Below the pieces are notes generated by a model. It was not told where the DNA came from. It saw nothing but the letters and a program-made list of their open reading frames with translations, and did not search any database. A stretch of 64,000 nt of DNA from a virus: the IMG/VR virus record IMGVR_UViG_3300038301_000548, positions 126,699-190,698 of that record; one strand, written 5' to 3'. This document shows, one piece after another, positions 27,930-41,767 of this stretch. Positions within the stretch are counted from its first letter, which is position 1. Each line of letters opens with the position of its first letter. Both the position numbers and the translations under genes were made by a program.

Positions 27930-27947
27930 AATTTTTTATTAAGTTAG

Positions 27948-28021
27948 TGGGCCTCCGCGGACTTGAACCGCGAACCTGCCGGTTATGAGCCGGATGCTCT
28001 GACCAATTGAGCTAGAGGCCC
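27948..28021 (-). tRNA. ileX: tRNA with CAU anticodon, most likely tRNA-Ile2 (lysidine type); CCA not encoded
   Basis: GGGCCTCTAGCTCAATTGGTCAGAGCATCCGGCTCATAACCGGCAGGTTCGCGGTTCAAGTCCGCGGAGGCCCA folds as a cloverleaf with loop CTCATAA. It has the C4-G69 and C5-G68 pairs reported as TilS determinants in E. coli, and lies next to tilS. Confidence 0.9.
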
Positions 28022-28040
28022 CCACATGAACAATATACAC

Positions 28041-28646
28041 CTATTTAACATAAAGTTCAAGCAGTTTTTTTCGAATAGTTTTGCGAATTCCTGGATTTAC
28101 TTTCAAAACGGCTGGTATGACGTTATGACGTATGTGATTTCTCATATGATTTGTGTGCTGGTTTGAAGGATCTTCAGTCCACGGAATGCTATGGTTCTCT
28201 GCGTATGATAGTATTGATTTTTTATCTGTCAAAAGAAAGGGCCTATATATATTTGGATCTCTTTTGTACGGAATAACTTTTCCATTTCCATGGAAACTAG
28301 ACATAAGCCAAGTCTCTACACAGTCATCGAGGTGATGACAAGTAATAATAAAGTTACTGCGAAGCCTGTTGAAAAAAGCATATCTTTCATCCCTCCAGAA
28401 TTCCTCAAGTGATCTTTTGCCTTTAAACCCCTTGATCTTACCAATAACTAGGTTTAAACTATGCTGAAATGCATAATTTTCTACAAAAGAAAGCGCTTCT
28501 TTTGAGTGAATGGTGTCGTGATCAAAATAAGCTAAGCTAACGTCTCTCTTGCCATGTGTAAGGAAATGAGAAACAACCATTGAATCGATTCCGCCGGAGC
28601 ATGCAATTGTTACCTTGTGTGGTATTTTTCCAATTATTCTTAACAT
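28041..28646 (-). CDS. tilS: tRNA(Ile)-lysidine synthetase, minimal N-terminal-domain form
   Basis: IACSGGIDSMV (PP-loop), WRDERYAFF, TCHHLDDCVETWL, IYRPFL, EDPSN..RNHIRHNVIP. Confidence 0.92.
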   Translation of the reverse strand: MLRIIGKIPHKVTIACSGGIDSMVVSHFLTHGKRDVSLAYFDHDTIHSKEALSFVENYAFQHSLNLVIGKIKGFKGKRSLEEFWRDERYAFFNRLRSNFIITCHHLDDCVETWLMSSFHGNGKVIPYKRDPNIYRPFLLTDKKSILSYAENHSIPWTEDPSNQHTNHMRNHIRHNVIPAVLKVNPGIRKTIRKKLLELYVK

Positions 28647-31387: not shown

Positions 31388-31675
31388 TTAAAAAGAATTC
31401 CTCAAAAGATACAAGATAGGATCCCGAGATTTTTTCATATGTTCATTCTTTTCTTTTTCTCTTAGCTTGCGTAATATAACTTCTTCTTCTGATAATTTCT
31501 TGAAGATGGAGTCTTTGAAGGCAACGGTACCGTATGAGTCTTGGGGGATCTTAAAGTTGTAGATAATTCTCTTATTTCTCGTGTCGACTCTATCAAAAAC
31601 AAAAGTTGTCCCGGGAGGGTAGTATTTACCTCGAGGAGAGACCCACCCTCTCTTAAGGGTAGCTTTAATTATCAT
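31388..31675 (-). CDS. Hypothetical protein
   Basis: 95-aa ORF. Confidence 0.55.
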   Translation of the reverse strand: MIIKATLKRGWVSPRGKYYPPGTTFVFDRVDTRNKRIIYNFKIPQDSYGTVAFKDSIFKKLSEEEVILRKLREKEKNEHMKKSRDPILYLLRNSF

Positions 31676-31690
31676 GGAATCGATTTAGTA

Positions 31691-32719
31691 TCAAATACCA
31701 GCCCAGCTTTTGAATCTTGATAACATATTTGAATATATCGAACCCTCTTCTTTGTCCGGTTTACAACCTTTCGGATATAGGGGTTGACCATTTATCTTTT
31801 GAGCGCATGGAAGTTGGGCCCTTGCGTAAGCCATTAGTGCTGATTTCCACATTGACAACCCTCTAACTAACTCATCCTTATTTTCAATCTTTTTATGAAG
31901 AGCTGCGACGGAGTCAGAGTCTCCTTCTGATTCTGCTTTTTTTGTTTCTTCATAATAATCCTCTATGGAGAATTCTGATGTCTTCTTTATGTTTTCTATA
32001 TTCTTGTTTACCACATCCTCAAATGTTAAATTAAACCTCTTCGCCTCTTCGTAGTATCCTCGAGCGTGGGCTTCGACTTCATGAGAACTCATATAATAGC
32101 TCAAATCTTTCCCGAGTTCAACTGTTTTCGAGCTGGCGGTGACAGCCTGGCGCGCATGAGTTAATTCATGAGCTAATGCTTCTGTAATTTTGATTCGGAT
32201 GTTCTCTAGTTGTTTGCGGAAAAGAGCTACAGTACTTACTTCTAACTCATTGATTATAATTTTTATATTTAATTCTGTCCTTTCTAATGAATATTCAGAA
32301 TTTGCATCAACAAATATTTGATCTTTTGAGCCAAAACTGCCGGCGACCACAAAAGGTCGCGAATCATGTTCGCTGCTTCTTAAAATTACCCTTAAATTAA
32401 AGACCTCTATTGGGGATATTCCAACTTTTCTGTTGGAGCGTCGCTGGCGCCCTCGATAATCAGAAGATGAACCTGAGTACTCGTCAGGCAGGCCATCCTG
32501 AAAACCGTCTGCATAAGGGTCTTTTCCAAGTTTCCAACTCCAATTGTTATACTGGATATTAAAGGCTTCCCTTAGTGTGTCTTCTGGGTTTGAGTTCTTT
32601 GTTTTGTGGGTCAAAAGAGTCATGATAGCTCGCGACCATGTGGTGACTAGGCTTCGGACCTGGGTCTCGGTTATAATTTGCTCTTCAAACCCTTTCCAAT
32701 TTTCCATTATAAGTTTCAT
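31691..32719 (-). CDS. Cassette gene: HExxH zincin-like protein with MKLIMENW leader
   Basis: ALAHELTHARQ..YYMSSHEVEAHARG; N-terminus MKLIMENWKGFEEQIITE. Confidence 0.7.
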   Translation of the reverse strand: MKLIMENWKGFEEQIITETQVRSLVTTWSRAIMTLLTHKTKNSNPEDTLREAFNIQYNNWSWKLGKDPYADGFQDGLPDEYSGSSSDYRGRQRRSNRKVGISPIEVFNLRVILRSSEHDSRPFVVAGSFGSKDQIFVDANSEYSLERTELNIKIIINELEVSTVALFRKQLENIRIKITEALAHELTHARQAVTASSKTVELGKDLSYYMSSHEVEAHARGYYEEAKRFNLTFEDVVNKNIENIKKTSEFSIEDYYEETKKAESEGDSDSVAALHKKIENKDELVRGLSMWKSALMAYARAQLPCAQKINGQPLYPKGCKPDKEEGSIYSNMLSRFKSWAGI

Positions 32720-32750
32720 AATATTAAATAGTTTCCAATATAAGAAAAGT

Positions 32751-32770
32751 TGGTGGAGGTGGCGGGAGTT
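32751..32770 (-). repeat. tmRNA 3'-end-like repeat, copy 1
   Basis: Minus strand TAACTCCCGCCACCTCCACCA then ACTTTTCTTAT; the TAA is the stop of ORF 32769..33086. Confidence 0.85.
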
Positions 32771-33086
32771 ATGCTAAATTTCTGTCTCCAAGATTGCCCT
32801 TTAGGCGCTGCAGCATTATATTAACAATCAGGAATTTTTCTAACTCTGGATTTCCGGAGGAATATTTTTTTGCTAATTCTTCTGGTGGGGTGGCGGAGGC
32901 TATTTCTCCAGATTTCTGCATGGCGACCGTCACTTCGTATGCATCATCTAACCAATCAGGCGCGATGTCATGTTGGTCTTCCATCTCCTGCTGTGACCAA
33001 CGGCGCCCAAGGTCGTATTTCTGCTGATCTGAATGCTCCTCTGTTACGAACTTTCTCCAGTTTTCCATTATAAGTTTATGTTTCAT
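32769..33086 (-). CDS. Cassette gene, hypothetical, MKHKLIMENW leader
   Basis: ACTACTTA motif 5 nt upstream; stop fused to repeat copy 1. Confidence 0.75.
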   Translation of the reverse strand: MKHKLIMENWRKFVTEEHSDQQKYDLGRRWSQQEMEDQHDIAPDWLDDAYEVTVAMQKSGEIASATPPEELAKKYSSGNPELEKFLIVNIMLQRLKGNLGDRNLA

Positions 33087-33106
33087 AATAATAAGTAGTC
33101 CCCAAA

Positions 33107-33193
33107 ATAAGAAAAGTTGGTGGACAAAAGGTATACAGCTAGAGCCAGGTGTATACCTTTTGTTACGGTGTGGATTTGGAGGTGGCGGGAGTT
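33107..33193 (-). repeat. tmRNA 3'-end-like repeat, copy 2, split by a 52-nt hairpin-bearing insert
   Basis: Core TAACTCCCGCCACCTCCA at 33177-33193; tail TCCACCAACTTTTCTTAT at 33107-33124; a 14-bp inverted repeat at 33124-33137 / 33150-33163 lies between them. Confidence 0.8.
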
Positions 33194-33854
33194 AGTTGGC
33201 ACTTGTAATGCGGGGGTCGCTATATGTGTCTTTTATCTCATCTTCGGCCTTTTCAGCTGCATAATCTTTGCCTGATTTATCTGTTCCGGATGTTGAAATA
33301 ATTTTTGTTATTGCCTCTATCTTGTTTAGCCAACTAATATTTATTTTCTTTCCCTGGGTAATTAATCTCTTTTGCAATTTTGCCGCGCGTGGATTTATTT
33401 TGGGATCCCCCCCAGCATAACGAATAGACATTATAACTGCTTGGTGAAGATCTTGAAACGCGCTTCGATTGTGTTTTCCCAATGTGGCTCTCATACTGTC
33501 AAGAAGAACGCGATGGCTGCAGAATTCTTCCTGGCCGGGTGAAGTGGAACACTCACTATTGCGCGCAGAGGTAAGATCTGATAATGTTGTATAGTAGGCA
33601 TTATCTCCTTTGTATAAAGCACTAAAATCAGATTCTTGTTTTGTTTTGATTTTGCCCGTGCGCGTTTCCTCTTCCATCTGATATATTCTAACAGTGGCTG
33701 GGTTGAATTTTTTCCCTTTTACAAAATTCTCGTACCATACTGCAATTAATATATACTTTTCATTTTCAGACATCGCTCTTGCATAAGATGAGTGCTTCGC
33801 CTCTTCCTCTGCTAGGAACTTCTTCCAGTTTTCCATTATAAGTTTATGTTTCAT
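33192..33854 (-). CDS. Cassette gene, hypothetical, MKHKLIMENW leader
   Basis: Its 5' region (about 33825-33894) is nearly identical to that of ORF 32769..33086 (about 33057-33124). Confidence 0.75.
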   Translation of the reverse strand: MKHKLIMENWKKFLAEEEAKHSSYARAMSENEKYILIAVWYENFVKGKKFNPATVRIYQMEEETRTGKIKTKQESDFSALYKGDNAYYTTLSDLTSARNSECSTSPGQEEFCSHRVLLDSMRATLGKHNRSAFQDLHQAVIMSIRYAGGDPKINPRAAKLQKRLITQGKKINISWLNKIEAITKIISTSGTDKSGKDYAAEKAEDEIKDTYSDPRITSAN

Positions 33855-33886
33855 AATAATAAGTAGTCTCCAAAAATAATAAAAGT

Positions 33887-33906
33887 TGGTGGAGGTGGCG
33901 GGAGTT
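33887..33906 (-). repeat. tmRNA 3'-end-like repeat, copy 3
   Basis: TAAACTCCCGCCACCTCCACCAACTTTT; the TAA is the stop of ORF 33906..34199. Confidence 0.85.
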
Positions 33907-34199
33907 TATGTTTTAGAACTTGATGTAGTGTCTGTTACGTGTGGTTGTTTTTCGTGCTTTCTTACAAGGCGCTCAAGATACTTTATTCTTTTTTGTAATT
34001 TTAAAATCTTATCTTGTGTGGCATCACGGCCAGTGTTTGGGTCTCCAAGCTCTTGCCACAAGGCGGACAAATACTGTTGGTGATGCAATGTAAACGGGAT
34101 TGTTTTGTTGGTGCTTGTGCCTTCACTCCACTCTTCTTTAAGTATCTGTCTTGTCTCTTGTTCTATCATTTCTATCAACAATTTCTTTGTGATTTTCAT
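33906..34199 (-). CDS. Cassette gene, hypothetical, MKITKKLLIEMIEQE leader
   Basis: ACTAATTA motif upstream at 34218-34225. Confidence 0.7.
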   Translation of the reverse strand: MKITKKLLIEMIEQETRQILKEEWSEGTSTNKTIPFTLHHQQYLSALWQELGDPNTGRDATQDKILKLQKRIKYLERLVRKHEKQPHVTDTTSSSKT

Positions 34200-34244
34200 T
34201 ATAAAATCTCCTTACAGTAATTAGTGCTGAATATAAGAAAAAGT

Positions 34245-34265
34245 TGGTGGAGGTGGCGGAAGTCG
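34245..34265 (-). repeat. tmRNA 3'-end-like repeat, copy 4
   Basis: CGACTTCCGCCACCTCCACCAACTTTTTCTTAT. Confidence 0.8.
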
Positions 34266-34271
34266 TTTATT

Positions 34272-34820
34272 TTACCAGTTTACGCCGGTAGTGATAGCTG
34301 TAGCCCAATAGTTGTTGACGTCGGGCACAAAACTCAAGTGAACCGGTACACTAAACACGCCGGCGTCCATTGTGTAGCCGATGGCTGCTGTCAGGTGAAC
34401 ATATTTGTCTTCTCCTGAAGGATCGTGGAATGACAACTGAGGGCCGACTGCTAATTGAATTGATTTGTCGATCTCAAACCCAACTAAAACCCGAGCTGAT
34501 GGTGATACTACGCTTTGATCTAATCCTGTGATACTCACATTTTGAATAAACAGGACATCCAACCAATCTCCCCCTGGCATACATTGCTGCAGTTCGAATC
34601 CCATTGTGAACATGTGTGGACTGTTAAGCTTCGATTCTGTGCCATCTGCATCAGGTGCGTCAGCCTTGTTGGCATAAACATAACCTAACCTGAGTCCTGA
34701 GCGCTTTGTCCATTTTTTGACACCCTCTTTATCTGTTGGGTGGGCCTTTGCTTGTGGGCACCCAATGAGTGCCAAAGTTGCGAACATTACTGTTGCTACT
34801 AAAATTATTTTCTTTAACAT
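34272..34820 (-). CDS. Cassette gene: exported, probable outer-membrane beta-barrel protein
   Basis: Signal peptide with a possible lipobox (LALIGC); alternating beta-strand pattern; C-terminal aromatic residue (AITTGVNW); own sigma70-like promoter. Confidence 0.55.
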   Translation of the reverse strand: MLKKIILVATVMFATLALIGCPQAKAHPTDKEGVKKWTKRSGLRLGYVYANKADAPDADGTESKLNSPHMFTMGFELQQCMPGGDWLDVLFIQNVSITGLDQSVVSPSARVLVGFEIDKSIQLAVGPQLSFHDPSGEDKYVHLTAAIGYTMDAGVFSVPVHLSFVPDVNNYWATAITTGVNW

Positions 34821-34853
34821 TTATATACTCCTATCTTTTTTAATGCTAGGGGT

Positions 34854-34882
34854 AGTATACAATATTTCCATCTATATGTTAA
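34854..34882 (-). promoter_or_regulatory. Sigma70-like promoter for ORF 34272..34820
   Basis: TTAACA (34882-34877), 17-nt spacer, TATACT (34859-34854); GGAG Shine-Dalgarno before the ATG. Confidence 0.55.
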
Positions 34883-34890
34883 ATAAAAGT

Positions 34891-34911
34891 TGGTGGGGGT
34901 GGCGGGAGTCA
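34891..34911 (-). repeat. tmRNA 3'-end-like repeat, copy 5
   Basis: TGACTCCCGCCACCCCCACCAACTTTT (one T>C change). Confidence 0.8.
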
Positions 34912-34997
34912 TTTTCTTTATCCTTGGACAAAACTTACCCCCCCTAGCACCAATGGTATACACCTTTTGTTTCCCACTTTGCGGGAACATAAAAATA

Positions 34998-35048
34998 TTA
35001 TTGACTAACATAAGCATAACCATCTTGACGCTCAATGTGAATAGTCAT
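34998..35048 (-). CDS. Putative 16-aa mini-ORF MTIHIERQDGYAYVSQ
   Basis: AAGGAG Shine-Dalgarno 7 nt upstream; sigma70-like promoter TCGACA-N17-TATAAT at 35118-35090; hairpin TTCCCGC-AAA-GTGGGAA downstream. Confidence 0.4.
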   Translation of the reverse strand: MTIHIERQDGYAYVSQ

Positions 35049-35194
35049 TTTCTTCTCCTTCTTTGTTTGGCGAGGATTCAAATGAGACAATTATACTCCA
35101 TTTAGAAGTAAATGTCGACCTTTTGTCTCGGATAAAACTTACTCCACTTGGCTCCAAGTGTTGACCTTTAAGGTGGAAACGCCCAAAGTTTTGG

Positions 35195-35218
35195 GTGGAT
35201 TTGGAGGTGGCGGGAGTT
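35195..35218 (-). repeat. tmRNA 3'-end-like repeat, copy 6 (variant tail AATCCAC shared with copy 2)
   Basis: AACTCCCGCCACCTCCAAATCCAC is identical to 33170-33193. Confidence 0.8.
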
Positions 35219-35242
35219 TAATCGCCATGGATCCAGAACTTT

Positions 35243-36649
35243 TTACTTGTCGATATTTTTCGTTGGGCGAACGATTATGTTTGGTCTGTTTCTTGTCGAC
35301 AGCCGCGGCAGAAGGTGTACATGAGTAGTCCGAGCATCCAAGACCGCGACGACGCCTACATCGGGAGTCGGGTGAAATGGTACCGAGCTAACATATTCTA
35401 CAGCGTGGCTTTTAACACCACGGGCGTGGGATCTTGATGGGACATTCATTCGAACGGGGGTGACCAGATTTTTTGCAAAAGCTTCTGGCCGCTTGCCGCG
35501 TGGGGTTCTATAAACATTAGTTATATGGCTTACCATATTATCTGGGCCCCCGCCAGTGGCTCCTTTGGGACCCGGATTGGTGAATATCCGGCTTGAAAAG
35601 ATCCTTCTTGCTATCTCTAGAGAAGTGAGTCCTTCTTCCGCAGATGAAATCTTTCCAAAAGTAGGTCTCGCGGGATTCAAAAGGAACCCTTTTTCTCTAA
35701 TTGCGTAATTAACATCTAACATTGTTTGGCCTTTCGATGCGTATCGCACTTTGTGAATATAATAATCGTATGAAGGATCTAAAACTTCGGAGAGATTATC
35801 CATAAGAACGATGTCCTCTTGAGCAATATCTAGCCGGTCTTTTCTCTGTGGGCGGCCACCGGCGCGTGGACCGTATCTGGGCGTTGGCGCCATGGGTGGC
35901 GCGCCGGAGAAAAAAGCGCCACCGGGTTGAATACCATCTGCCCTGTACATTCCATAATTTTCGCGAGGGACTTTTTTTGACATCTTAATTTCGCGGTTTG
36001 CGGCGTCCACTTTCGGCCGGCCGGGTTCACGGCCCCATGAATGCCTCATCGATTTCGCCAACTTTGTTTTAGAAAAAACCTTGCTAACTAATCCCAGGAT
36101 CCTGCTGATACTTACAGAAAGGGCGCCGATTCCGGCACTGATGGCGATTTGTTCGACAAGTGCTTGAGTGGCTTCCTCGATTTTTTCAAACGGAGTTAGA
36201 TAAGTTTCGCCCTGATAACTTTGGTTTTTAGTTTTAGTGGAATCTCCAAAAGCCATCCCGTCAAAGCGTCGCGGCGTAGATAAAGTGGACCCACGCTGGA
36301 CGTCACGCGTAAAATGGAAGTCTAACCAACCCGGGTTTTCGTCTTCAATAGCTTTTATTTGAGGTACCTCCTTAAAAAATTTTATTGTTTCCGATTGGGC
36401 GCGCCAAGTATCCATATCAGTAGCCAGTAACTTATCATAATAAATTTTAATCTTTCTGATAAGGCTGTTATACCACTTTTGATACTCCAAGGTTTTTTTT
36501 TCTTTTTTTTCTTTTTCTTTTTTTTCTTCTTCTTCTTCTTCTCTCTCACTTTTTTGCTTCTGTCGTTTGTGGTAAGCGCGGCGCGCCGGGTCTTCTTTAA
36601 GGATTTCAGATCCAACATAGGCGCGCCAAATTTCCATTATAAGTTTCAT
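35243..36649 (-). CDS. Cassette gene, 468 aa, MKLIMEIW leader, with a low-complexity E/K tract and a hydrophobic segment
   Basis: ORF track; ACTACTTA motif at 36670-36677; GAGGAG Shine-Dalgarno. Confidence 0.7.
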   Translation of the reverse strand: MKLIMEIWRAYVGSEILKEDPARRAYHKRQKQKSEREEEEEEKKEKEKKEKKTLEYQKWYNSLIRKIKIYYDKLLATDMDTWRAQSETIKFFKEVPQIKAIEDENPGWLDFHFTRDVQRGSTLSTPRRFDGMAFGDSTKTKNQSYQGETYLTPFEKIEEATQALVEQIAISAGIGALSVSISRILGLVSKVFSKTKLAKSMRHSWGREPGRPKVDAANREIKMSKKVPRENYGMYRADGIQPGGAFFSGAPPMAPTPRYGPRAGGRPQRKDRLDIAQEDIVLMDNLSEVLDPSYDYYIHKVRYASKGQTMLDVNYAIREKGFLLNPARPTFGKISSAEEGLTSLEIARRIFSSRIFTNPGPKGATGGGPDNMVSHITNVYRTPRGKRPEAFAKNLVTPVRMNVPSRSHARGVKSHAVEYVSSVPFHPTPDVGVVAVLDARTTHVHLLPRLSTRNRPNIIVRPTKNIDK

Positions 36650-36711
36650 ATATAAGACTCTCCTCTTTATAAGTAGTTTATATTAAGGTATTAAAGAACA
36701 AGAAAAAACTT

Positions 36712-36730
36712 GTGGAGGTGGCGGGAGTCA
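36712..36730 (-). repeat. tmRNA 3'-end-like repeat, copy 7
   Basis: TGACTCCCGCCACCTCCAC; the TGA is the stop of ORF 36728..37168. Confidence 0.8.
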
Positions 36731-37168
36731 TTCTATGTTGTCTAAGTCAATAAGCCAAACCTCTACAGGGTAGTTAACATCTCTACAATGTTGCATCCCC
36801 ATCATGGTCAACCTAGTGTTACCAGCAATAAGAGTATATTCCCCATTAACTTTTTTAACTATTGGCAACTCTATTTCTCCAGAATCAAACATTTTGCCTA
36901 CGCGTTCCTGTCTATCTGATGTGAGATTTTGATACTCTTCTTCCATTTCTTTGCAGATATCCGAAAACTGTGTGTTCTTAATTTGGCCTGCTATTGGTAG
37001 GGCATCTATTACTTTCCCCTTTGAGGATATTTCTATCCAAGATTCTTTTGTTGGAAAATCTTCACTATGATGAACTCTTGCTTCATCCCACTCAAAATTA
37101 AAGTTTGGGTCTCGAAAACTTATAGATTCGTTTAAATATCTTCTCCAGCTTTCCATTATAAGTTTCAT
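36728..37168 (-). CDS. ParB/Srx-like domain protein with MKLIMESW leader
   Basis: IELPIVKKVNGEYTLIAGNTRL resembles the ParB-like PI.V......Y.li.G.hR motif. Confidence 0.55.
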   Translation of the reverse strand: MKLIMESWRRYLNESISFRDPNFNFEWDEARVHHSEDFPTKESWIEISSKGKVIDALPIAGQIKNTQFSDICKEMEEEYQNLTSDRQERVGKMFDSGEIELPIVKKVNGEYTLIAGNTRLTMMGMQHCRDVNYPVEVWLIDLDNIE

Positions 37169-37578
37169 AGTACTTCATATTCCCTGTTGGTACTATTTAG
37201 TTTAATTTTGTGCTTTTTGATTAGATTATTCAGCTGATGCAGGTTTATCTTTAATATGGCCGCGGCGTCTCTTTTGTTTTTCGAAGCAGTTAATGCATAC
37301 AGTAAAAAAGCTTCCTTGCAAATATCAGGCAACATTTTCATAATAGGAAACCCCAACAATTTACCGCCAAGACTAGAAGCTATTGACTCTATTTTAAGAT
37401 AGACCACCTCTTCTAAGGTTAGTAATTTAATCCTATTAATAAAATCTTTATTTATCTTTCTTTCTCTTAGAAGTTTTTTTTTATAATCAAAATTTTCATT
37501 TTCTGATTTGTATTTACAACCTCTAAGTGAGTTATCGAATAACATGCTGTCCTTTTCTGCCGAACCCAACCACCTCAA
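37165..37578 (-). CDS. Protein with a C-terminal Fis-like helix-turn-helix
   Basis: YALTASKNKRDAAAILKINLHQLNNLIKKHKI aligns by eye with the Fis-type HTH; ATGA overlap with the next gene. Confidence 0.55.
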   Translation of the reverse strand: MRWLGSAEKDSMLFDNSLRGCKYKSENENFDYKKKLLRERKINKDFINRIKLLTLEEVVYLKIESIASSLGGKLLGFPIMKMLPDICKEAFLLYALTASKNKRDAAAILKINLHQLNNLIKKHKIKLNSTNREYEVL

Positions 37579-37618: not shown

Positions 37619-40600
37619 TTAACTAGAACTGAGACCCGGGTTCTCTTCAGGGTTCTTAGCCTGTTCATATTCATCATTAGTCGGTTCTTCTGGGGGACTA
37701 GGTGACATCTCGTTATCCCATTTATCAAAATATAATTTAGTGTTAGCTATTAAATAATCATAAAACATCTCTTGATCCTCTGGGTTGTCTAGTTCTCCAT
37801 AATAATCAACTATAGACTTCTCAATGGTAGGATAAACTCTCTCTGCTTTATTTCTTCCGGTAGTGTCTGCGCCGGAGATCGCGCCCATTTCTTCTTCCTC
37901 TTCTTCCATTTCTGGTTCTGGCTGGGGTGCACCATCATCTGCGTCGATAAATTTATCGATGTCGCCAATACCAGTTGCAGCATCAACGCCCTCAATATCA
38001 ACACCGACAGCTTCGGCTAGTTGCTCATCCTCAGTGCTACCGATATCATTAAGTTTGACGGGAGCTAGTGTGTCCTGAATCCATTTTACAATATGCGCTC
38101 GAAACGAAAGTTTTTGGTCCTCATCGGTTGTTAGGGTTTTGTATACGTTTCTCAAAGTTGAAAGAACGTTTGAATTCTTAAGAAGATCCTTAAGAGTGTT
38201 AATTCCAGTACTGTCAGCTATATCAACAGTTGGATCCTCAGAAGCTGCTTCTAAAATCATTTCTCTTAGAGACAATCTAAGCTTATTCTCCTGTAAAACA
38301 TAATTGATTAAATTATCATTTTCTTTTTTCTTGGATTTAAAGAATTCTTGGAGGCCAATTCTTATTGATCTTCTAAGAGTCTCTTCCTTTTCTTCTTGTT
38401 TCATTTCTTCTTCCTCATAATTTTTTATTAGTGGTATTGGGGCCGCATAGCCGGCAATTGCGGGTGACGCTGATGTTTCTTTTATTTCTTCCTCATCTTC
38501 CGCTAAATAGGCGTTGGAGGCGCCCGGTGTGCGCGCCTGGGTAAAGGCACCCCCGTATTGGGTTAAGTCCTTGCGGCCGCCATCAAGCAGCTTCCTGTGA
38601 GCCGGCAGCAGCTTTGCCCTCATCGCAACGAGAAAAGGATCTTGAGAGGGCGCGCCCTTGGGTGCTTTCTGAGCTTTGAAACCTTCCGATACCAGATTTA
38701 TTAATGTTCCTTTGATCATTTCTTTTAAATCTTCTGCATCAATTTCTGGCTCTTTTACTTGATCTGATTCACTGTCTTGCGTGAGCGCAGGATTAATGCC
38801 AAGTATTTTTAAAACGGCCGCTACATCAGATATATCTGTTACAAAATCTTCTAAGAAAATAAGCCCGATAGGATCTTCTGATGCCAAATCGATAAAGTCT
38901 CTCATATCAGAAGCATGGAACAAATGTTTATCAGCAACCTTGCCTTCTAGCCTTTCTTCGTCTGTGAGATCTTCCGGTGATATTCTTCCTTTACCCTTAT
39001 TCAACATTTGCAAGATCGTTGGGTTTTCATCTAAAAGTTCTAGATATCTAGTTGAGTGTTCAAACGGTCCAACGGATTTTGTTTGAATCGTTAGATCAGG
39101 CCTTTTCTCTTTACTTTTTTGCATGACTTTGCCACCGTATCTATCTGCGTCGGTTCCTTTTGCTCCGACACCCAGGATAACAGTCGCGCCTTTCGGCGCC
39201 GCGAATATATTATTTGGATCTGCAGGATGTTGTATGAAATCGATCGCTGTCATCATCGATGAAGCTACGCCCGCGGGGCCCAACATCACTTTTGCTTTGT
39301 TTCTTATAGGTGATTTGTCGATCATCACATTCCAACATTGTATGGCTTGATCAGCGCTAATACTTCCTCCGCCCTTAAGGGCCCGCCCTGACAGTTGTGG
39401 TGCTGACACAAAAATATAAATAACGTCAGCACCCTGAGCTAACGCTTCTGCCGCCAGGACATGTCCTTTATGTGGTGGCTTAAATGAACCAGGAAACAAA
39501 GCAATCTTTAAAGGCTGAGTCTCGCCTTGTGCGCTCTGTTCTGCGTCTTGTGAAGGTTCTATAGGACCGAACCTACCATAGCGCTCTGTGCCCAAGATTT
39601 GGTTGCTTGGAGCGAACCACCCTGTAAACTTGTAGGTGGTACCATTGAAATCAAACACAAAGCCCTCTGACGGGGTATTAATGTTTTGAACATCTTTTAA
39701 TTTCGCGTATTGTTTCTTTAAATCTTCTTTGGCCGCTTCATTTGAAGAATTCTGTATTTTTGATATCGTATCAGAAATTTCATTTTGAAGTTTTTTTATT
39801 GTTGCTTCATTATCTGAGATAAAAGCAGAATGAAATCCTTCCAGGATAGCGTTTGTAAAGTCATAAAGAGAATTACTCAAAGCTGCAGTATAATTTTGGT
39901 ATTTAAAATTATCATCAAATTCTTTTATTTCGTCTTTAAGTTCTTGAGGTATACCGGCAGTGATATCCCTCATTGTCGGCCGCGGCTCGTGTAAAGGCTT
40001 TTTTGTTATAGGGTCTTTAAGTCCGCAAGGTATGAGCTGAGTCTTGTCTTTTAAGCTTCTGCAAAGCCCCATTAACCTTTGCACCAAAAGTTTGTTCCTA
40101 TCCTCTGTTAATCCGAACGCGTCTATAATGGGAGTTATTTGAACCATAACAAGATCTTGTATTGTGTTAGAGTCATCGAGTCCAAAGTCTCGAACAAGAT
40201 TGTCAATAGCAGATATTGAAGTCTCAAGGACAGCACCTGCTTTCTCCTGCCCTGCAGGTTCTAATCTTCTTTCTGCATGAGTCTCCACAGAAAAAATACC
40301 AGGTTCGTCAGTGCCTTTGCCCATTAGGGATTTTTCTAAAAGTTCATAGTTAGACGATAGATCTGCAGCAGCTGAACCTAGATGTTTTGAAGTAAGAGAC
40401 ATTGCTGTTTTAGGGTGAAATTTGTCATGGCCGACGGCATGTATTAAGAGTGTTTTCTTATCATAAGGAATGACGTTGGTAGTGCCTTGACTTCTTGGGT
40501 CATCTTCTTCAAGTCCGGGGGTGCCAGGATTCATGACTTCTGTATTGAAATAGATATTATCCTTCTTGGTACCAAAAATCTTTAATTGAGTATCTTTATC

Positions 40601-40936
40601 TAGCTCTGTTATAACATCTTCGAAAGCTTGGAGTGCTTCTACAAAACTATAGCGTAAAGCTTGGTTTGGGTGAGCGGAGAAAAACTCATCAAACTGCTCG
40701 ACGTCGAGACCTCCTGCTAGGATGTGCGATTTATTTCGTATAGCTCTCGCTCTTTGAGTGGCTACATCAAAGGACAGATAGACATTTTGACCGTCTGTCT
40801 TTTCAGTTCCTCGTAATCGGCCATCGACGGCCGCCTGTAATAATTGCTTCAACTCCCCGAAGGTCATCTCACCATTATCATAAATGTGGTTCATGTGACC
40901 AGCGACAGCACCCTCAGTCAGAATAGAATTACTCAC
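37619..40936 (-). CDS. Large protein: ligase-like (EKxDG) N-domain + HIGH-motif cytidylyltransferase-like domain + acidic tail
   Basis: GHMNH..TFGELK..TEKTDGQN; ALFPGSFKPPHKGH; FHASDMR. Confidence 0.7.
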   Translation of the reverse strand: MSNSILTEGAVAGHMNHIYDNGEMTFGELKQLLQAAVDGRLRGTEKTDGQNVYLSFDVATQRARAIRNKSHILAGGLDVEQFDEFFSAHPNQALRYSFVEALQAFEDVITELDKDTQLKIFGTKKDNIYFNTEVMNPGTPGLEEDDPRSQGTTNVIPYDKKTLLIHAVGHDKFHPKTAMSLTSKHLGSAAADLSSNYELLEKSLMGKGTDEPGIFSVETHAERRLEPAGQEKAGAVLETSISAIDNLVRDFGLDDSNTIQDLVMVQITPIIDAFGLTEDRNKLLVQRLMGLCRSLKDKTQLIPCGLKDPITKKPLHEPRPTMRDITAGIPQELKDEIKEFDDNFKYQNYTAALSNSLYDFTNAILEGFHSAFISDNEATIKKLQNEISDTISKIQNSSNEAAKEDLKKQYAKLKDVQNINTPSEGFVFDFNGTTYKFTGWFAPSNQILGTERYGRFGPIEPSQDAEQSAQGETQPLKIALFPGSFKPPHKGHVLAAEALAQGADVIYIFVSAPQLSGRALKGGGSISADQAIQCWNVMIDKSPIRNKAKVMLGPAGVASSMMTAIDFIQHPADPNNIFAAPKGATVILGVGAKGTDADRYGGKVMQKSKEKRPDLTIQTKSVGPFEHSTRYLELLDENPTILQMLNKGKGRISPEDLTDEERLEGKVADKHLFHASDMRDFIDLASEDPIGLIFLEDFVTDISDVAAVLKILGINPALTQDSESDQVKEPEIDAEDLKEMIKGTLINLVSEGFKAQKAPKGAPSQDPFLVAMRAKLLPAHRKLLDGGRKDLTQYGGAFTQARTPGASNAYLAEDEEEIKETSASPAIAGYAAPIPLIKNYEEEEMKQEEKEETLRRSIRIGLQEFFKSKKKENDNLINYVLQENKLRLSLREMILEAASEDPTVDIADSTGINTLKDLLKNSNVLSTLRNVYKTLTTDEDQKLSFRAHIVKWIQDTLAPVKLNDIGSTEDEQLAEAVGVDIEGVDAATGIGDIDKFIDADDGAPQPEPEMEEEEEEMGAISGADTTGRNKAERVYPTIEKSIVDYYGELDNPEDQEMFYDYLIANTKLYFDKWDNEMSPSPPEEPTNDEYEQAKNPEENPGLSSS

Positions 40937-40945
40937 AATATTGCC

Positions 40946-41767
40946 CTATCTAGTCCAAAGTTTTGTTAATTTATTGAAAATATTCTCGTCTCTTTGTCCG
41001 AAGCGATTTTCATATATAGCGTGTTCTTCCTCTGGGGTTTGGACTTCCTGTTTCACGCTCGCAGCGCTGCTGTCTTTATCTTCTTTTGGGCACGCACACT
41101 TGGCGCCTGCGGCTGCATTTTTCTTACAAGCAGGACAGGCGTCTCCTTTACATTGATCGCCTGCTGCGCATTTGTGACCTTCACCTTCTTTGATAGTCTC
41201 TTCATCAGTGTCGTCGTCACGCTTATGGTTGCCGCAACCGCCTTCATCTATCTCTTCTGGCGCTTTTTGTTTCTCTAATTTTGCCTCGAGAATCTTCCCA
41301 ATGAGACCCTTGAGTTCTTTTTTTGAAATCTTAACCATTTTCTTATTCTCCTTTAAATTAATAGTTACATTATCTATATTTATTTGTGTTTTATAGTTGT
41401 CTTCCCAGTCTCGGAAACACATATTGCCCTTCTCGTAAGCTTCCCTTTCCATTTCGCGCATATGCGGGTTTGTTTGGGCATATCCCATTCCCATTTCTCC
41501 ACATTTTTCAGCGCTGAGATCTCCCCGTAGATTTTGTGTATGATGCACTAGCTCATGGGCATAAGATCTTAGGACATCTTTCGGGTGCCTGTTTGAAACA
41601 AAAAGGGTAATAGATTCGTCTTGAGGGTCGTAATATGCAGTTTTTCCTAGAATATTTGAAGCATTTTCTGGGTCTTTCTTATAAAAAAGCTTCGGAGGCC
41701 TTTTAAAGCCCAGTCTTTTTTTAGCAAAACCTTGTAAACTGTCAATAAGTGGCTGTAATTCTTGCAT
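40946..41767 (-). CDS. HExxH zincin-like protein with a Cys-rich C-terminal part
   Basis: KTAYYDP..VLRSYAHELVHHTQ..REMEREAY. Confidence 0.65.
   Translation of the reverse strand: MQELQPLIDSLQGFAKKRLGFKRPPKLFYKKDPENASNILGKTAYYDPQDESITLFVSNRHPKDVLRSYAHELVHHTQNLRGDLSAEKCGEMGMGYAQTNPHMREMEREAYEKGNMCFRDWEDNYKTQINIDNVTINLKENKKMVKISKKELKGLIGKILEAKLEKQKAPEEIDEGGCGNHKRDDDTDEETIKEGEGHKCAAGDQCKGDACPACKKNAAAGAKCACPKEDKDSSAASVKQEVQTPEEEHAIYENRFGQRDENIFNKLTKLWTR

Follow-up and report, generated by a model that had tools for sequence, protein, structure and literature searches.

Repeat Copies and Cassette Genes in the Window

The window analysed here comprises the final 64 kb (64,000 nucleotides, nt) of a 190,698-bp IMG/VR virus record that is rated complete (IMGVR_UViG_3300038301_000548). 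On its minus strand, spanning positions 32751-36728, a 19-mer (ACTCCCGCCACCTCCACCA) resembling the 3′ end of transfer-messenger RNA (tmRNA) was found in seven copies (at most three mismatches) among small cassette genes, and several of these open reading frames (ORFs) stop exactly where a copy begins. The subject of this work is the junction between stop codon and repeat, and the way in which such cassettes may be gained and exchanged. No other copy was found in the 190,698-bp genome at the same threshold, and the nine matches to the 12-mer core were reached in 0 of 100 shuffles.

Protein searches identified a major capsid protein of T4 type (Gp23 family, E 7.8e-61), together with a prohead protease of gp21 type (Peptidase_S77, 102.8 bits, E 1.6e-30) and a recombinase of the UvsX/RecA type (E 1.9e-37). 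Coding sequence accounts for about 92% of the genome, and the minus strand holds nearly all genes. Because of these proteins and this layout, the source is best regarded as an uncultured marine T4-like myovirus. A blastn search of the region against a reference collection of sequenced phages gave no DNA-level match; the related contigs used below originate from marine metagenomes and viromes. A host call from the tmRNA 3′ domain was rejected, this 32-mer being identical across many phyla.

A sequence-only reading of the window had reported that four ORFs end at the repeat, and its coordinates and wording proved correct; the four comprise 97-220 amino acids (aa). The seven copies are listed below with positions in tRNA-like tmRNA numbering, the tail being the stretch from A58 or C59 to CCA76.

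Tail copy 1, 32751-32769, minus strand: perfect A58-CCA76; the TAA of the 105-aa ORF ends on the first A
Tail copy 2, 19-mer match 33174-33192 (A58-A73 = 33177..33192), minus strand: the TAA of the 220-aa ORF ends on the first A
Tail copy 3, 33887-33905, minus strand: perfect; the TAA of the 97-aa ORF (33906-34199) stands directly before the first A
Tail copy 4, 34245-34263, minus strand: one mismatch; T-loop CGA kept; 182-aa ORF terminating 8 nt before the first base
Tail copy 5, 34891-34909, minus strand: one mismatch; the TGA in front is unused by any long ORF
Tail copy 6, 19-mer match 35199-35217 (A58-A73 = 35202..35217), minus strand: former resident tmRNA tail
Tail copy 7, 36710-36728, minus strand: CAA in place of CCA; the first A is also the last base of the 146-aa ORF's TGA

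In ORFs 32769-33086, 33192-33854 and 36728-37168 (TAA, TAA and TGA, respectively) the last base of the stop is the first A of the repeat. Copies 5 and 6 start with TGACTCC and TAAACTCC, as had been stated, though neither stop closes a long ORF: upstream of copy 5 long ORFs are lacking, and the 468-aa ORF terminates 25 nt upstream of copy 6. It likewise holds for all seven window copies that the likeness to tmRNA begins within the T-loop and that the 5′ strand of the T-stem is absent. The CCA is missing in copies 2, 6 and 7.

The cassette genes of the array are the following.

31691..32719, minus strand: cassette ORF, 342 aa; leader MKLIMENWKGF; HExxH; common to the closest relative, L270
32769..33086, minus strand: cassette ORF, 105 aa; leader MKHKLIMENWRKF; 92% identity to L001:2998-3312
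33192..33854, minus strand: cassette ORF, 220 aa; leader MKHKLIMENWKKF
33906..34199, minus strand: cassette ORF, 97 aa; without the MENW leader
34272..34820, minus strand: cassette ORF, 182 aa; signal-peptide/lipobox-like N-terminus; 96% identity to L001:2393-2938
35243..36649, minus strand: cassette ORF, 468 aa; leader MKLIMEIWRAY; in place of the tmRNA body
36728..37168, minus strand: cassette ORF, 146 aa; leader MKLIMESWRRY; directly after the 137-aa gene that precedes tmRNA in relatives

Pfam and PHROGs searches with the window cassette proteins returned no significant family. The products of 31691-32719 and 40946-41767 contain HExxH (HELTH and HELVH) and may be metalloproteases, without a family match.

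Derivation of the Repeat from a tmRNA Gene

Neither ARAGORN nor Rfam detected a tmRNA in the window or in the genome. Full tmRNA genes were detected in contigs that share the repeat (by ARAGORN, with the tag ANDDVENFEDFALAA or variants of it; by Rfam RF00023 at 107-131 bits), and the intact tmRNA genes of relatives terminate in ...GGACGCGGGTTCGACTCCCGCCACCTCCACCA. Since intact tmRNAs of relatives end in the repeat, the latter is a real tmRNA tail, extending from T-loop A58 to CCA76 and made up of the last 18-19 bases of the gene.

The gene order in relatives is a 1105-aa gene, a 137-aa gene, sometimes more genes, the tmRNA and the cassettes, after which come a lysozyme-like gene, a PP-loop (TilS-like) gene and a tRNA(CAU). 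By this synteny, the 146-aa and 468-aa cassettes of the window take the place expected for the tmRNA body. Over copy 6 and the following 170 nt, identity to L009 (its tmRNA end and native downstream sequence) is 98%, and eight bases of tmRNA body (GTTCTGGA) persist upstream of copy 6, before a scrambled T-arm. In view of this identity, the surviving bases and the synteny, the genome has lost its tmRNA body yet kept the tails.

Junctions were sampled from IMG/VR and metagenome contigs (173 fragment copies, 96 junction types), and those with an upstream ORF of at least 50 aa made up a set of 77 non-redundant junctions. In 37/37 loci having both, the fragments lie downstream of the intact tmRNA, in the same strand orientation; two intact T-arms were not seen at any locus. 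Nearly all of the 96 junction types begin inside the T-loop, two or three of them keeping a few bases more, and the fragment boundary ranges over positions 52 to 59. An origin of the fragments from decayed full tmRNA copies was rejected: among the type-I fragments sampled by blastn, a set that does not include window copy 6, none retains more of the tmRNA body.

Position and Source of the Stop Codons

The stop ends at position 58 in 23 of the 77 junctions, at 57 in eight and at 59 in three, which places 34 of them within one base of position 58/59, while the others spread to 57 nt upstream. The stop-to-repeat distance is thus strongly non-random in this larger sample, where a random one would have counted against the sequence-only reading. 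The conserved genes IscU and IscA also stop exactly at position 58 in some phages.

Similar adjacency was observed at other elements. At ACTAYTTA, the promoter-like motif described below, when no tail is present, the stop falls within -1 to +2 nt in 55 of 146 ORF ends, about as often as it does at the tail (34 of 77), and six of the 55 stops share one base with the motif. At the tmRNA 5′ end, the stop of the upstream ORF abuts or overlaps the first base in 4/8 relatives. Downstream of IscA either the promoter motif, a spacer and promoter, a tail with spacer and promoter, or an overlapping start was found, with almost no spacer each time. Because stops abut ACTAYTTA and the tmRNA 5′ end alike, a crossover is not needed for the adjacency, which largely is a general packing rule of this phage group and not a crossover signature. 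The stops fused to the repeat are mostly a by-product of extreme gene packing, and are less telling than they first looked.

The ORFs upstream of tmRNA that stop on or against tmRNA base 1 are those at L001:111-506 and L002:1506-1940 and those in L011 and L012; one group of these ORFs has another conserved N-terminus, MPKFYRQNKKRIDPRYFLNE.

Some of the stops bear marks of the T-loop. When the stop ends at 58, the preceding base is T, as T55 is, in 14/23 junctions versus 32.5% genome-wide (p = 0.005), and when it occupies 55-57 it is TAG in 5/8 versus 16% genome-wide (p = 0.004); TAGA is one base from the native TCGA. Part of the stops therefore look as if made from the T-loop TCGA. A derivation of all stops from CGA was rejected, as TGA at 56-58 (7/23 versus 31% genome-wide) shows no enrichment. 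In 12 junctions (T)TCGA is intact, and there the stop is 5-49 nt upstream. IscA keeps its native ...SFSV end, then TAG or TAA, then C59; because this native end precedes the stop, some stops are the gene's own. The proposal of the sequence-only reading, that a crossover point supplies or abuts the stop, is accordingly left half standing: the adjacency is non-random and some stops look T-loop-derived, but packing largely explains the adjacency, and no tyrosine or serine recombinase was found in this genome or in five relatives. As to the T-loop as supplier of the stop, the kept T55 and the TAG excess at 55-57 speak for it, and the lack of TGA enrichment and the native IscA stop against it.

In the frame of a stop at 56-58 the tail (e.g., 32751-32768) reads CTC CCG CCA CCT CCA CCA, that is, Leu-Pro-Pro-Pro-Pro-Pro. 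C always follows a stop at 56-58, C after the stop is rare genome-wide (15%), and C is the weakest termination context after a stop codon. Read-through into this peptide may add pressure for a stop before the tail.

Another explanation put forward earlier was that transcripts are cut after the CCA, so that the mRNA would end in a tRNA-like 3′ half. This half might then be charged or bound by SmpB, or it might shield the 3′ end. The A/U-rich context behind the CCA is the same as at a genuine tmRNA 3′ end, the stop is 18 nt from the putative end, and in relatives upstream ORFs likewise stop against the 5′ processing site of the tmRNA. However, the tail has no partner strand, so neither an acceptor nor a T helix can form: when folded together with 30 nt of each flank, none of the seven copies is more stable than shuffled sequence, and the 18-mer is predicted to be unpaired throughout, whereas the intact tmRNA used as control forms its T-arm. 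Alanylation by alanyl-tRNA synthetase (AlaRS) requires the G3:U70 helix, i.e., the 5′ acceptor strand. With the CCA absent from copies 2, 6 and 7 and the element absent from most leader genes (see below), a processed, alanylated or SmpB-bound 3′ half is very unlikely.

No inverted repeat or conserved hairpin was found at the seven copies (fold z-scores -1.4 to +1.4). A retroviral primer-binding site, which has the same 18-nt span, was rejected, since no reverse transcriptase was found in this genome and the tail is in sense orientation, not complementary. An anti-Shine-Dalgarno mimic pairing with GGAG in the spacer was also rejected: the GGAG positions vary and the folds lack the pairing.

Spacer, Promoter-Like Motif and Leader

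Behind the CCA there is a spacer of about 20 nt (ACTTTTCTTATTTTGGAG) and then ACTAYTTA; the ATG lies no more than 5 nt beyond the motif or is preceded by a Shine-Dalgarno sequence. The motifs of the window cassettes are as follows.

32725..32732, minus strand: promoter-like motif ACTATTTA of cassette 1
33092-33099, 33860-33867 and 36670-36677, minus strand: equivalent ACTACTTA motifs

ACTATTTA/ACTACTTA occurs 33 times on the gene strand versus four on the other, in at least 15 of the 33 cases just upstream of a start, and often touches the preceding stop codon. A T4 late-type promoter needs only a -10-like box, and ACTAYTTA is probably a phage promoter of this type. If so, several cassette mRNAs would be leaderless. 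A sigma-70 promoter in the module was rejected, its hexamers fitting poorly by eye and the strand-biased ACTATTTA motif being present instead.

A shared leader was detected on five window cassette ORFs and on 164 distinct proteins of relatives. Its consensus, from 122 proteins, is MKLIMENWR(K/R)(F/Y)(L/V/I)xE; E14 is found in 73% and L/V/I12 in 84% of them, and conservation ends after residue 14. The effector-like payloads behind it are unrelated (145 non-redundant by 8-mer sharing; mean column identity 5%), the recognisable ones being cell-wall hydrolases (Peptidase_M23, Amidase_2, LysM, PG_binding_1 and TseH-like), GDSL lipases, PAP2, GNAT and others. The cleavage motif of gp21 is (L/I)xE, and by analogy the leader fits a T4-type capsid-targeting/propeptide signal. 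T4 internal proteins are diverse and have only a capsid targeting sequence in common; their N-terminal propeptide is removed by gp21, which cuts after Glu (PMC3012670, PMC5694885).

A tmRNA tail lies upstream of 20 of the 164 leader genes; because the other 144 lack it, the tail is not needed to express them. This count bears on an explanation in which the C-rich, G-poor 18-mer serves the downstream cassette as a functional DNA or RNA element (a promoter or regulator site, or a Rho-loading stretch), with genes packed against its 5′ edge and the tmRNA likeness telling only of its origin. The near-perfect state of the tail in seven copies of a tmRNA-less genome, where the spacers vary, would agree with such a role, as would the packing against functional elements that is the rule in the phage group and the position of the unstructured tail, always about 20 nt upstream of ACTAYTTA. 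But the 144 tail-less genes do not stand by themselves: the IscA gene of L233 has the same spacer and promoter and no tail, the tail decays at orthologous IscU junctions, and tails are found only next to tmRNA genes. A working element of this kind is therefore considered improbable.

Probable Exchange of Cassettes between Relatives

The window and L001 have the 182-aa and 105-aa cassettes in common, at 87-91% DNA identity, while the intervening content differs; one match breaks off 11 nt past the CCA, the other behind the eighth codon of the leader. In comparison with L270 the flanks are 97-99% identical and the 342-aa cassette is common, with other cassettes to the left of copy 1. Breakpoint mapping in homologous loci thus showed whole-cassette differences bounded within tail, spacer or leader. 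The fragments of L001 (CCCGCC T-stem) mismatch L001's own tmRNA (TCTCCTC), and because of this difference the tails must travel with the cassettes between phages. In L006, the third copy is a decaying tail on the native IscU promoter, which in L110 directly follows the tmRNA; by its sequence, this is the pattern of a displaced original tmRNA end.

With respect to window positions 31657-31686, L270 has 2.4 kb extra after the 342-aa gene (L270:7980-10389), with four ORFs, two of them with the leader. The extra segment starts at a truncated tail (GCCACCTCCACCAA) and has an imperfect repeat of about 20 nt at its flanks; the window may have deleted a segment of the L270 type via short homology.

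Such whole-cassette differences could also come from tails acting as att sites of a T-loop-specific integrase, with the cassettes mobilizable in cis, the recombinase provided in trans, for instance by a host ssrA island or prophage, and the stop lying in the crossover region as in the integron attC. The integrase idea of the sequence-only reading was reasonable, given that the T-loop boundary equals that of ssrA-integration repeats: the repeat extent, from T-loop to 3′ end (18-23 nt), is that of the ssrA-island direct repeats (PMC3146451, PMC4383910), and ssrA islands form tandem arrays, with 15 integrase-less islands among them (PMC3146451). Temperate-phage contigs in IMG/VR (e.g., L062/L111 and L113) contain att fragments with the same boundary, and the 12 junctions with (T)TCGA resemble true att identity blocks in beginning at T54/T55. 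A start within the T-loop is nearly universal among the fragments, none in the blastn sample (without window copy 6) keeps more tmRNA body, and the fragments are always downstream of the intact gene; moreover, the 32-nt tmRNA 3′ domain, which many bacterial phyla share without a change, could be recognised by host enzymes. Against this, domain searches found no tyrosine integrase, resolvase-type or large serine recombinase domain in this complete genome, and no tyrosine integrase or resolvase domain in five relatives. Unrelated ORF ends lie to the left of every fragment, without a conserved left core half-site, and the inverted repeat or hairpin of a folded site is lacking. The breakpoints of close relatives are also found in spacer and leader, and the boundary varies over positions 52 to 59. 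Site-specific integration at the tails is hence doubtful.

An Endonuclease Family at tmRNA 3′ Ends

Between the tmRNA and the first cassette of L009 there is a 184-aa gene (L009:195-749) that matches the endonuclease family PHROG 3322 (E 8e-18) and also an endonuclease VII/HNH PHROG family (E 5e-12). In at least 12 contigs (among them L214, L236, L225, L278, L256, L199, L044, L048 and L105) a homologue adjoins a tmRNA 3′ end or fragment, and the family occurs almost only behind such ends or fragments. They follow tmRNAs of several T-arm types, including another tmRNA lineage (L199), and in L044, L048 and L105 the homologue adjoins tail fragments with no tmRNA. Two features of the window are related to this family.

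35042..35201, minus strand: native tmRNA downstream sequence and endonuclease remnant; small hairpin; ACTATTTA-type promoter region lost
33117..33176, minus strand: insert splitting copy 2; hairpin (14-bp arms) and AATCCAC left end, then resumed TCCACCAA (33117-33124)

In the first, the endonuclease gene is deleted precisely at 35170/35169, and its last ~30 nt and the downstream sequence remain. A duplicated C59-A73 (15 nt) flanks the endonuclease cassette. Copy 2 runs on into AAATCC, as in the endonuclease-type downstream sequence, and the insert that splits it is probably a collapsed endonuclease cassette, because its sequence is similar to what flanks the endonuclease gene on both sides in relatives.

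The standard T-arm was found in 0/3 endonuclease-positive versus 32/38 endonuclease-negative tmRNA types (p = 0.008, in a small, pattern-ascertained sample), and endonuclease remnants are present in two of the six endonuclease-negative types with a variant T-arm. Findings of this kind would be expected of a homing endonuclease directed at the T-loop region.

The tmRNA tail CCACCTCC, lying about 60 nt upstream, could mask the ribosome-binding site of the endonuclease gene, AAGGAGGTGGAG, to which it is complementary.

Interpretation of the Array

PeSL modules in T4-type phages are thought to shuffle by homologous recombination (PMC4122927). The reading that we favour, with a probability of roughly 0.5, is that of a PeSL-like hyperplastic cassette array at the tmRNA locus, shuffled by homologous recombination at displaced tails. 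Each junction consists of a displaced tmRNA tail (58/59-CCA), a spacer of about 20 nt, the promoter-like ACTAYTTA and, mostly, the 14-residue leader MKLIMENWRKFLxE. The phage's own homologous recombination would gain, lose and swap cassettes as with PeSL modules, the left arm being the tmRNA body or upstream genes and the right arm any tail together with spacer, promoter and leader; breaks made by the HNH endonuclease family at tmRNA 3′ ends would probably stimulate the exchange. The differences seen among relatives are all accounted for in this way, as a cassette block could be copied into any related phage. Stops on 56-58 or 55-57 may have arisen in two ways, by a near-zero spacer before the next conserved element and by a leftover TCGA which, being one change from TGA/TAG, was often turned into a stop.

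Several points weigh against this reading. Homologous recombination cannot make a new junction between gene and tail, and zero-distance junctions of this kind occur in at least three unrelated families (MENW genes, IscU and IscA). The sharp T-loop boundary points to a site-specific step that homologous recombination does not explain. Packing should delete a useless tail, as in L233, so the tail may have a function. The link between the endonuclease and T-loop variants comes from three independent endonuclease-positive types. Finally, the late-type promoter and the capsid-targeting leader are both assigned from motifs.

A bolder scheme is an integron-like, integrase-free homing of cassettes at the phages' own tmRNA gene. 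The T-loop would be cut by the HNH endonuclease or by a host ssrA recombinase and repaired from a co-infecting phage via the displaced tail, so that capsid-targeted effector blocks are copied in and the T-loop is reused as a stop; we offer this scheme tentatively, as a rather unlikely one.

Relation to Known Systems

In common with the PeSL/PmSL modules (PMC2839356, PMC4122927), the array belongs to a T4-type phage, has promoter-bearing intergenic modules between small variable genes of a hyperplastic region, shows whole-gene indels and replacements between close relatives that are bounded by the modules, and lacks a dedicated recombinase. It differs from them in having neither a stem-loop terminator nor a sigma-70 promoter (TTGACA-N17-TATAAT), in having a tmRNA 3′ fragment, ACTAYTTA and often a coding leader, and in being confined to the tmRNA locus.

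As in integron cassettes (attC), single genes are arrayed in one orientation and ORFs stop at or in the junction element; unlike in integrons, neither IntI nor a folded imperfect-palindrome site is present, and each cassette has a promoter-like motif.

T-even phages have polymorphic loci for internal proteins (IP) that share a conserved capsid targeting sequence, reportedly described by Repoila in 1994 (cited in PMC4122927). The cassettes resemble them in that variable genes bear unrelated payloads behind a short N-terminal leader ending in hydrophobic-x-Glu (a putative gp21-type cut site), though the leader here is MKLIMENWRKFLxE versus MKTYQEFIAE. The T4 IP genes lie near the tRNA and lysozyme region.

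Integration sublocations, a matter reportedly treated by Williams in 2002, are cited with ssrA T-loop islands. In the Dehalococcoides ssrA genomic islands (PMC3146451; for the Islander principle, PMC4383910) an intact tmRNA also heads an array of tandem units, some of them integrase-less, with same-strand repeats of about 20 nt that extend from mid T-loop to the 3′ end and into which genes run. Those are chromosomal islands of 10-30 kb moved by serine or tyrosine integrases, whereas here single-gene cassettes of 0.3-1.5 kb lie in a lytic phage in which no recombinase gene was found and the tmRNA is gone.

Free-standing homing endonucleases such as T4 SegB and the Mob family (PMC4122927) also comprise HNH/EndoVII-like genes that are present or absent behind a stable-RNA gene; here, in a small sample, variants of the target gene may go with the presence of the endonuclease. 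Unlike in classical homing, which makes no duplication, a 15-nt duplication of the tmRNA tail flanks the insertion here.

No account of such an array came up in the literature searched. Its cassettes bear promoters and encode probable capsid-targeted effectors, an integrase is lacking, and the array is best grouped with PeSL-type modular shuffling, as a new form of it that shares features with tandem ssrA islands. With more than 170 fragment copies in marine viromes, it represents a concrete and widespread case of trade in small accessory genes among lytic phages; since part of a stable-RNA gene can be recognised in the junction element, gain and loss can be traced base by base. The array also joins phage tmRNA, homing endonucleases and an effector-like family with a probable capsid-targeting leader, which are usually studied apart. 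If the T-loop boundary is the cut or crossover site of an enzyme, the locus would be an accessible model for how gene cassettes acquire recombination sites.

Neighbouring Genes and Minor Observations

At 27947-28646 of the window, a PP-loop ATPase gene (ATP_bind_3, E 1.5e-33; TilS-like) lies directly upstream of a tRNA with anticodon CAU. The pair is conserved in relatives and may be a lysidine/tRNA-Ile2 unit, the tRNA then not being a tRNA-Met.

The 137-aa gene at 37165-37578, conserved upstream of the tmRNA locus, encodes a protein whose C-terminal helix-turn-helix appears Fis- or excisionase-like by eye; a family search with it gave only a weak HTH_17 match (E 0.22). The 1105-aa protein (37619-40936) has a GxFxPxHxGH nucleotidyltransferase motif and a weak CTP_transf_like match, and its gene adjoins the array in relatives too.

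Behind the tmRNA or the array, the first conserved genes are usually the phage-encoded IscA and IscU, for Fe-S assembly, in varying order and with varying spacing. They were found in L002+L140, L004, L006, L010, L041, L110, L127 and other contigs, and in some phages tmRNA tails lie between the two.

At L134:3220-3262, and also in L215, L218, L267 and L287, the T-loop TTCGACT is swapped for AGTCGGAG while the T-stem strands are intact. The L134 tmRNA is no longer called by ARAGORN, and the allele may be endonuclease-resistant or disabled.

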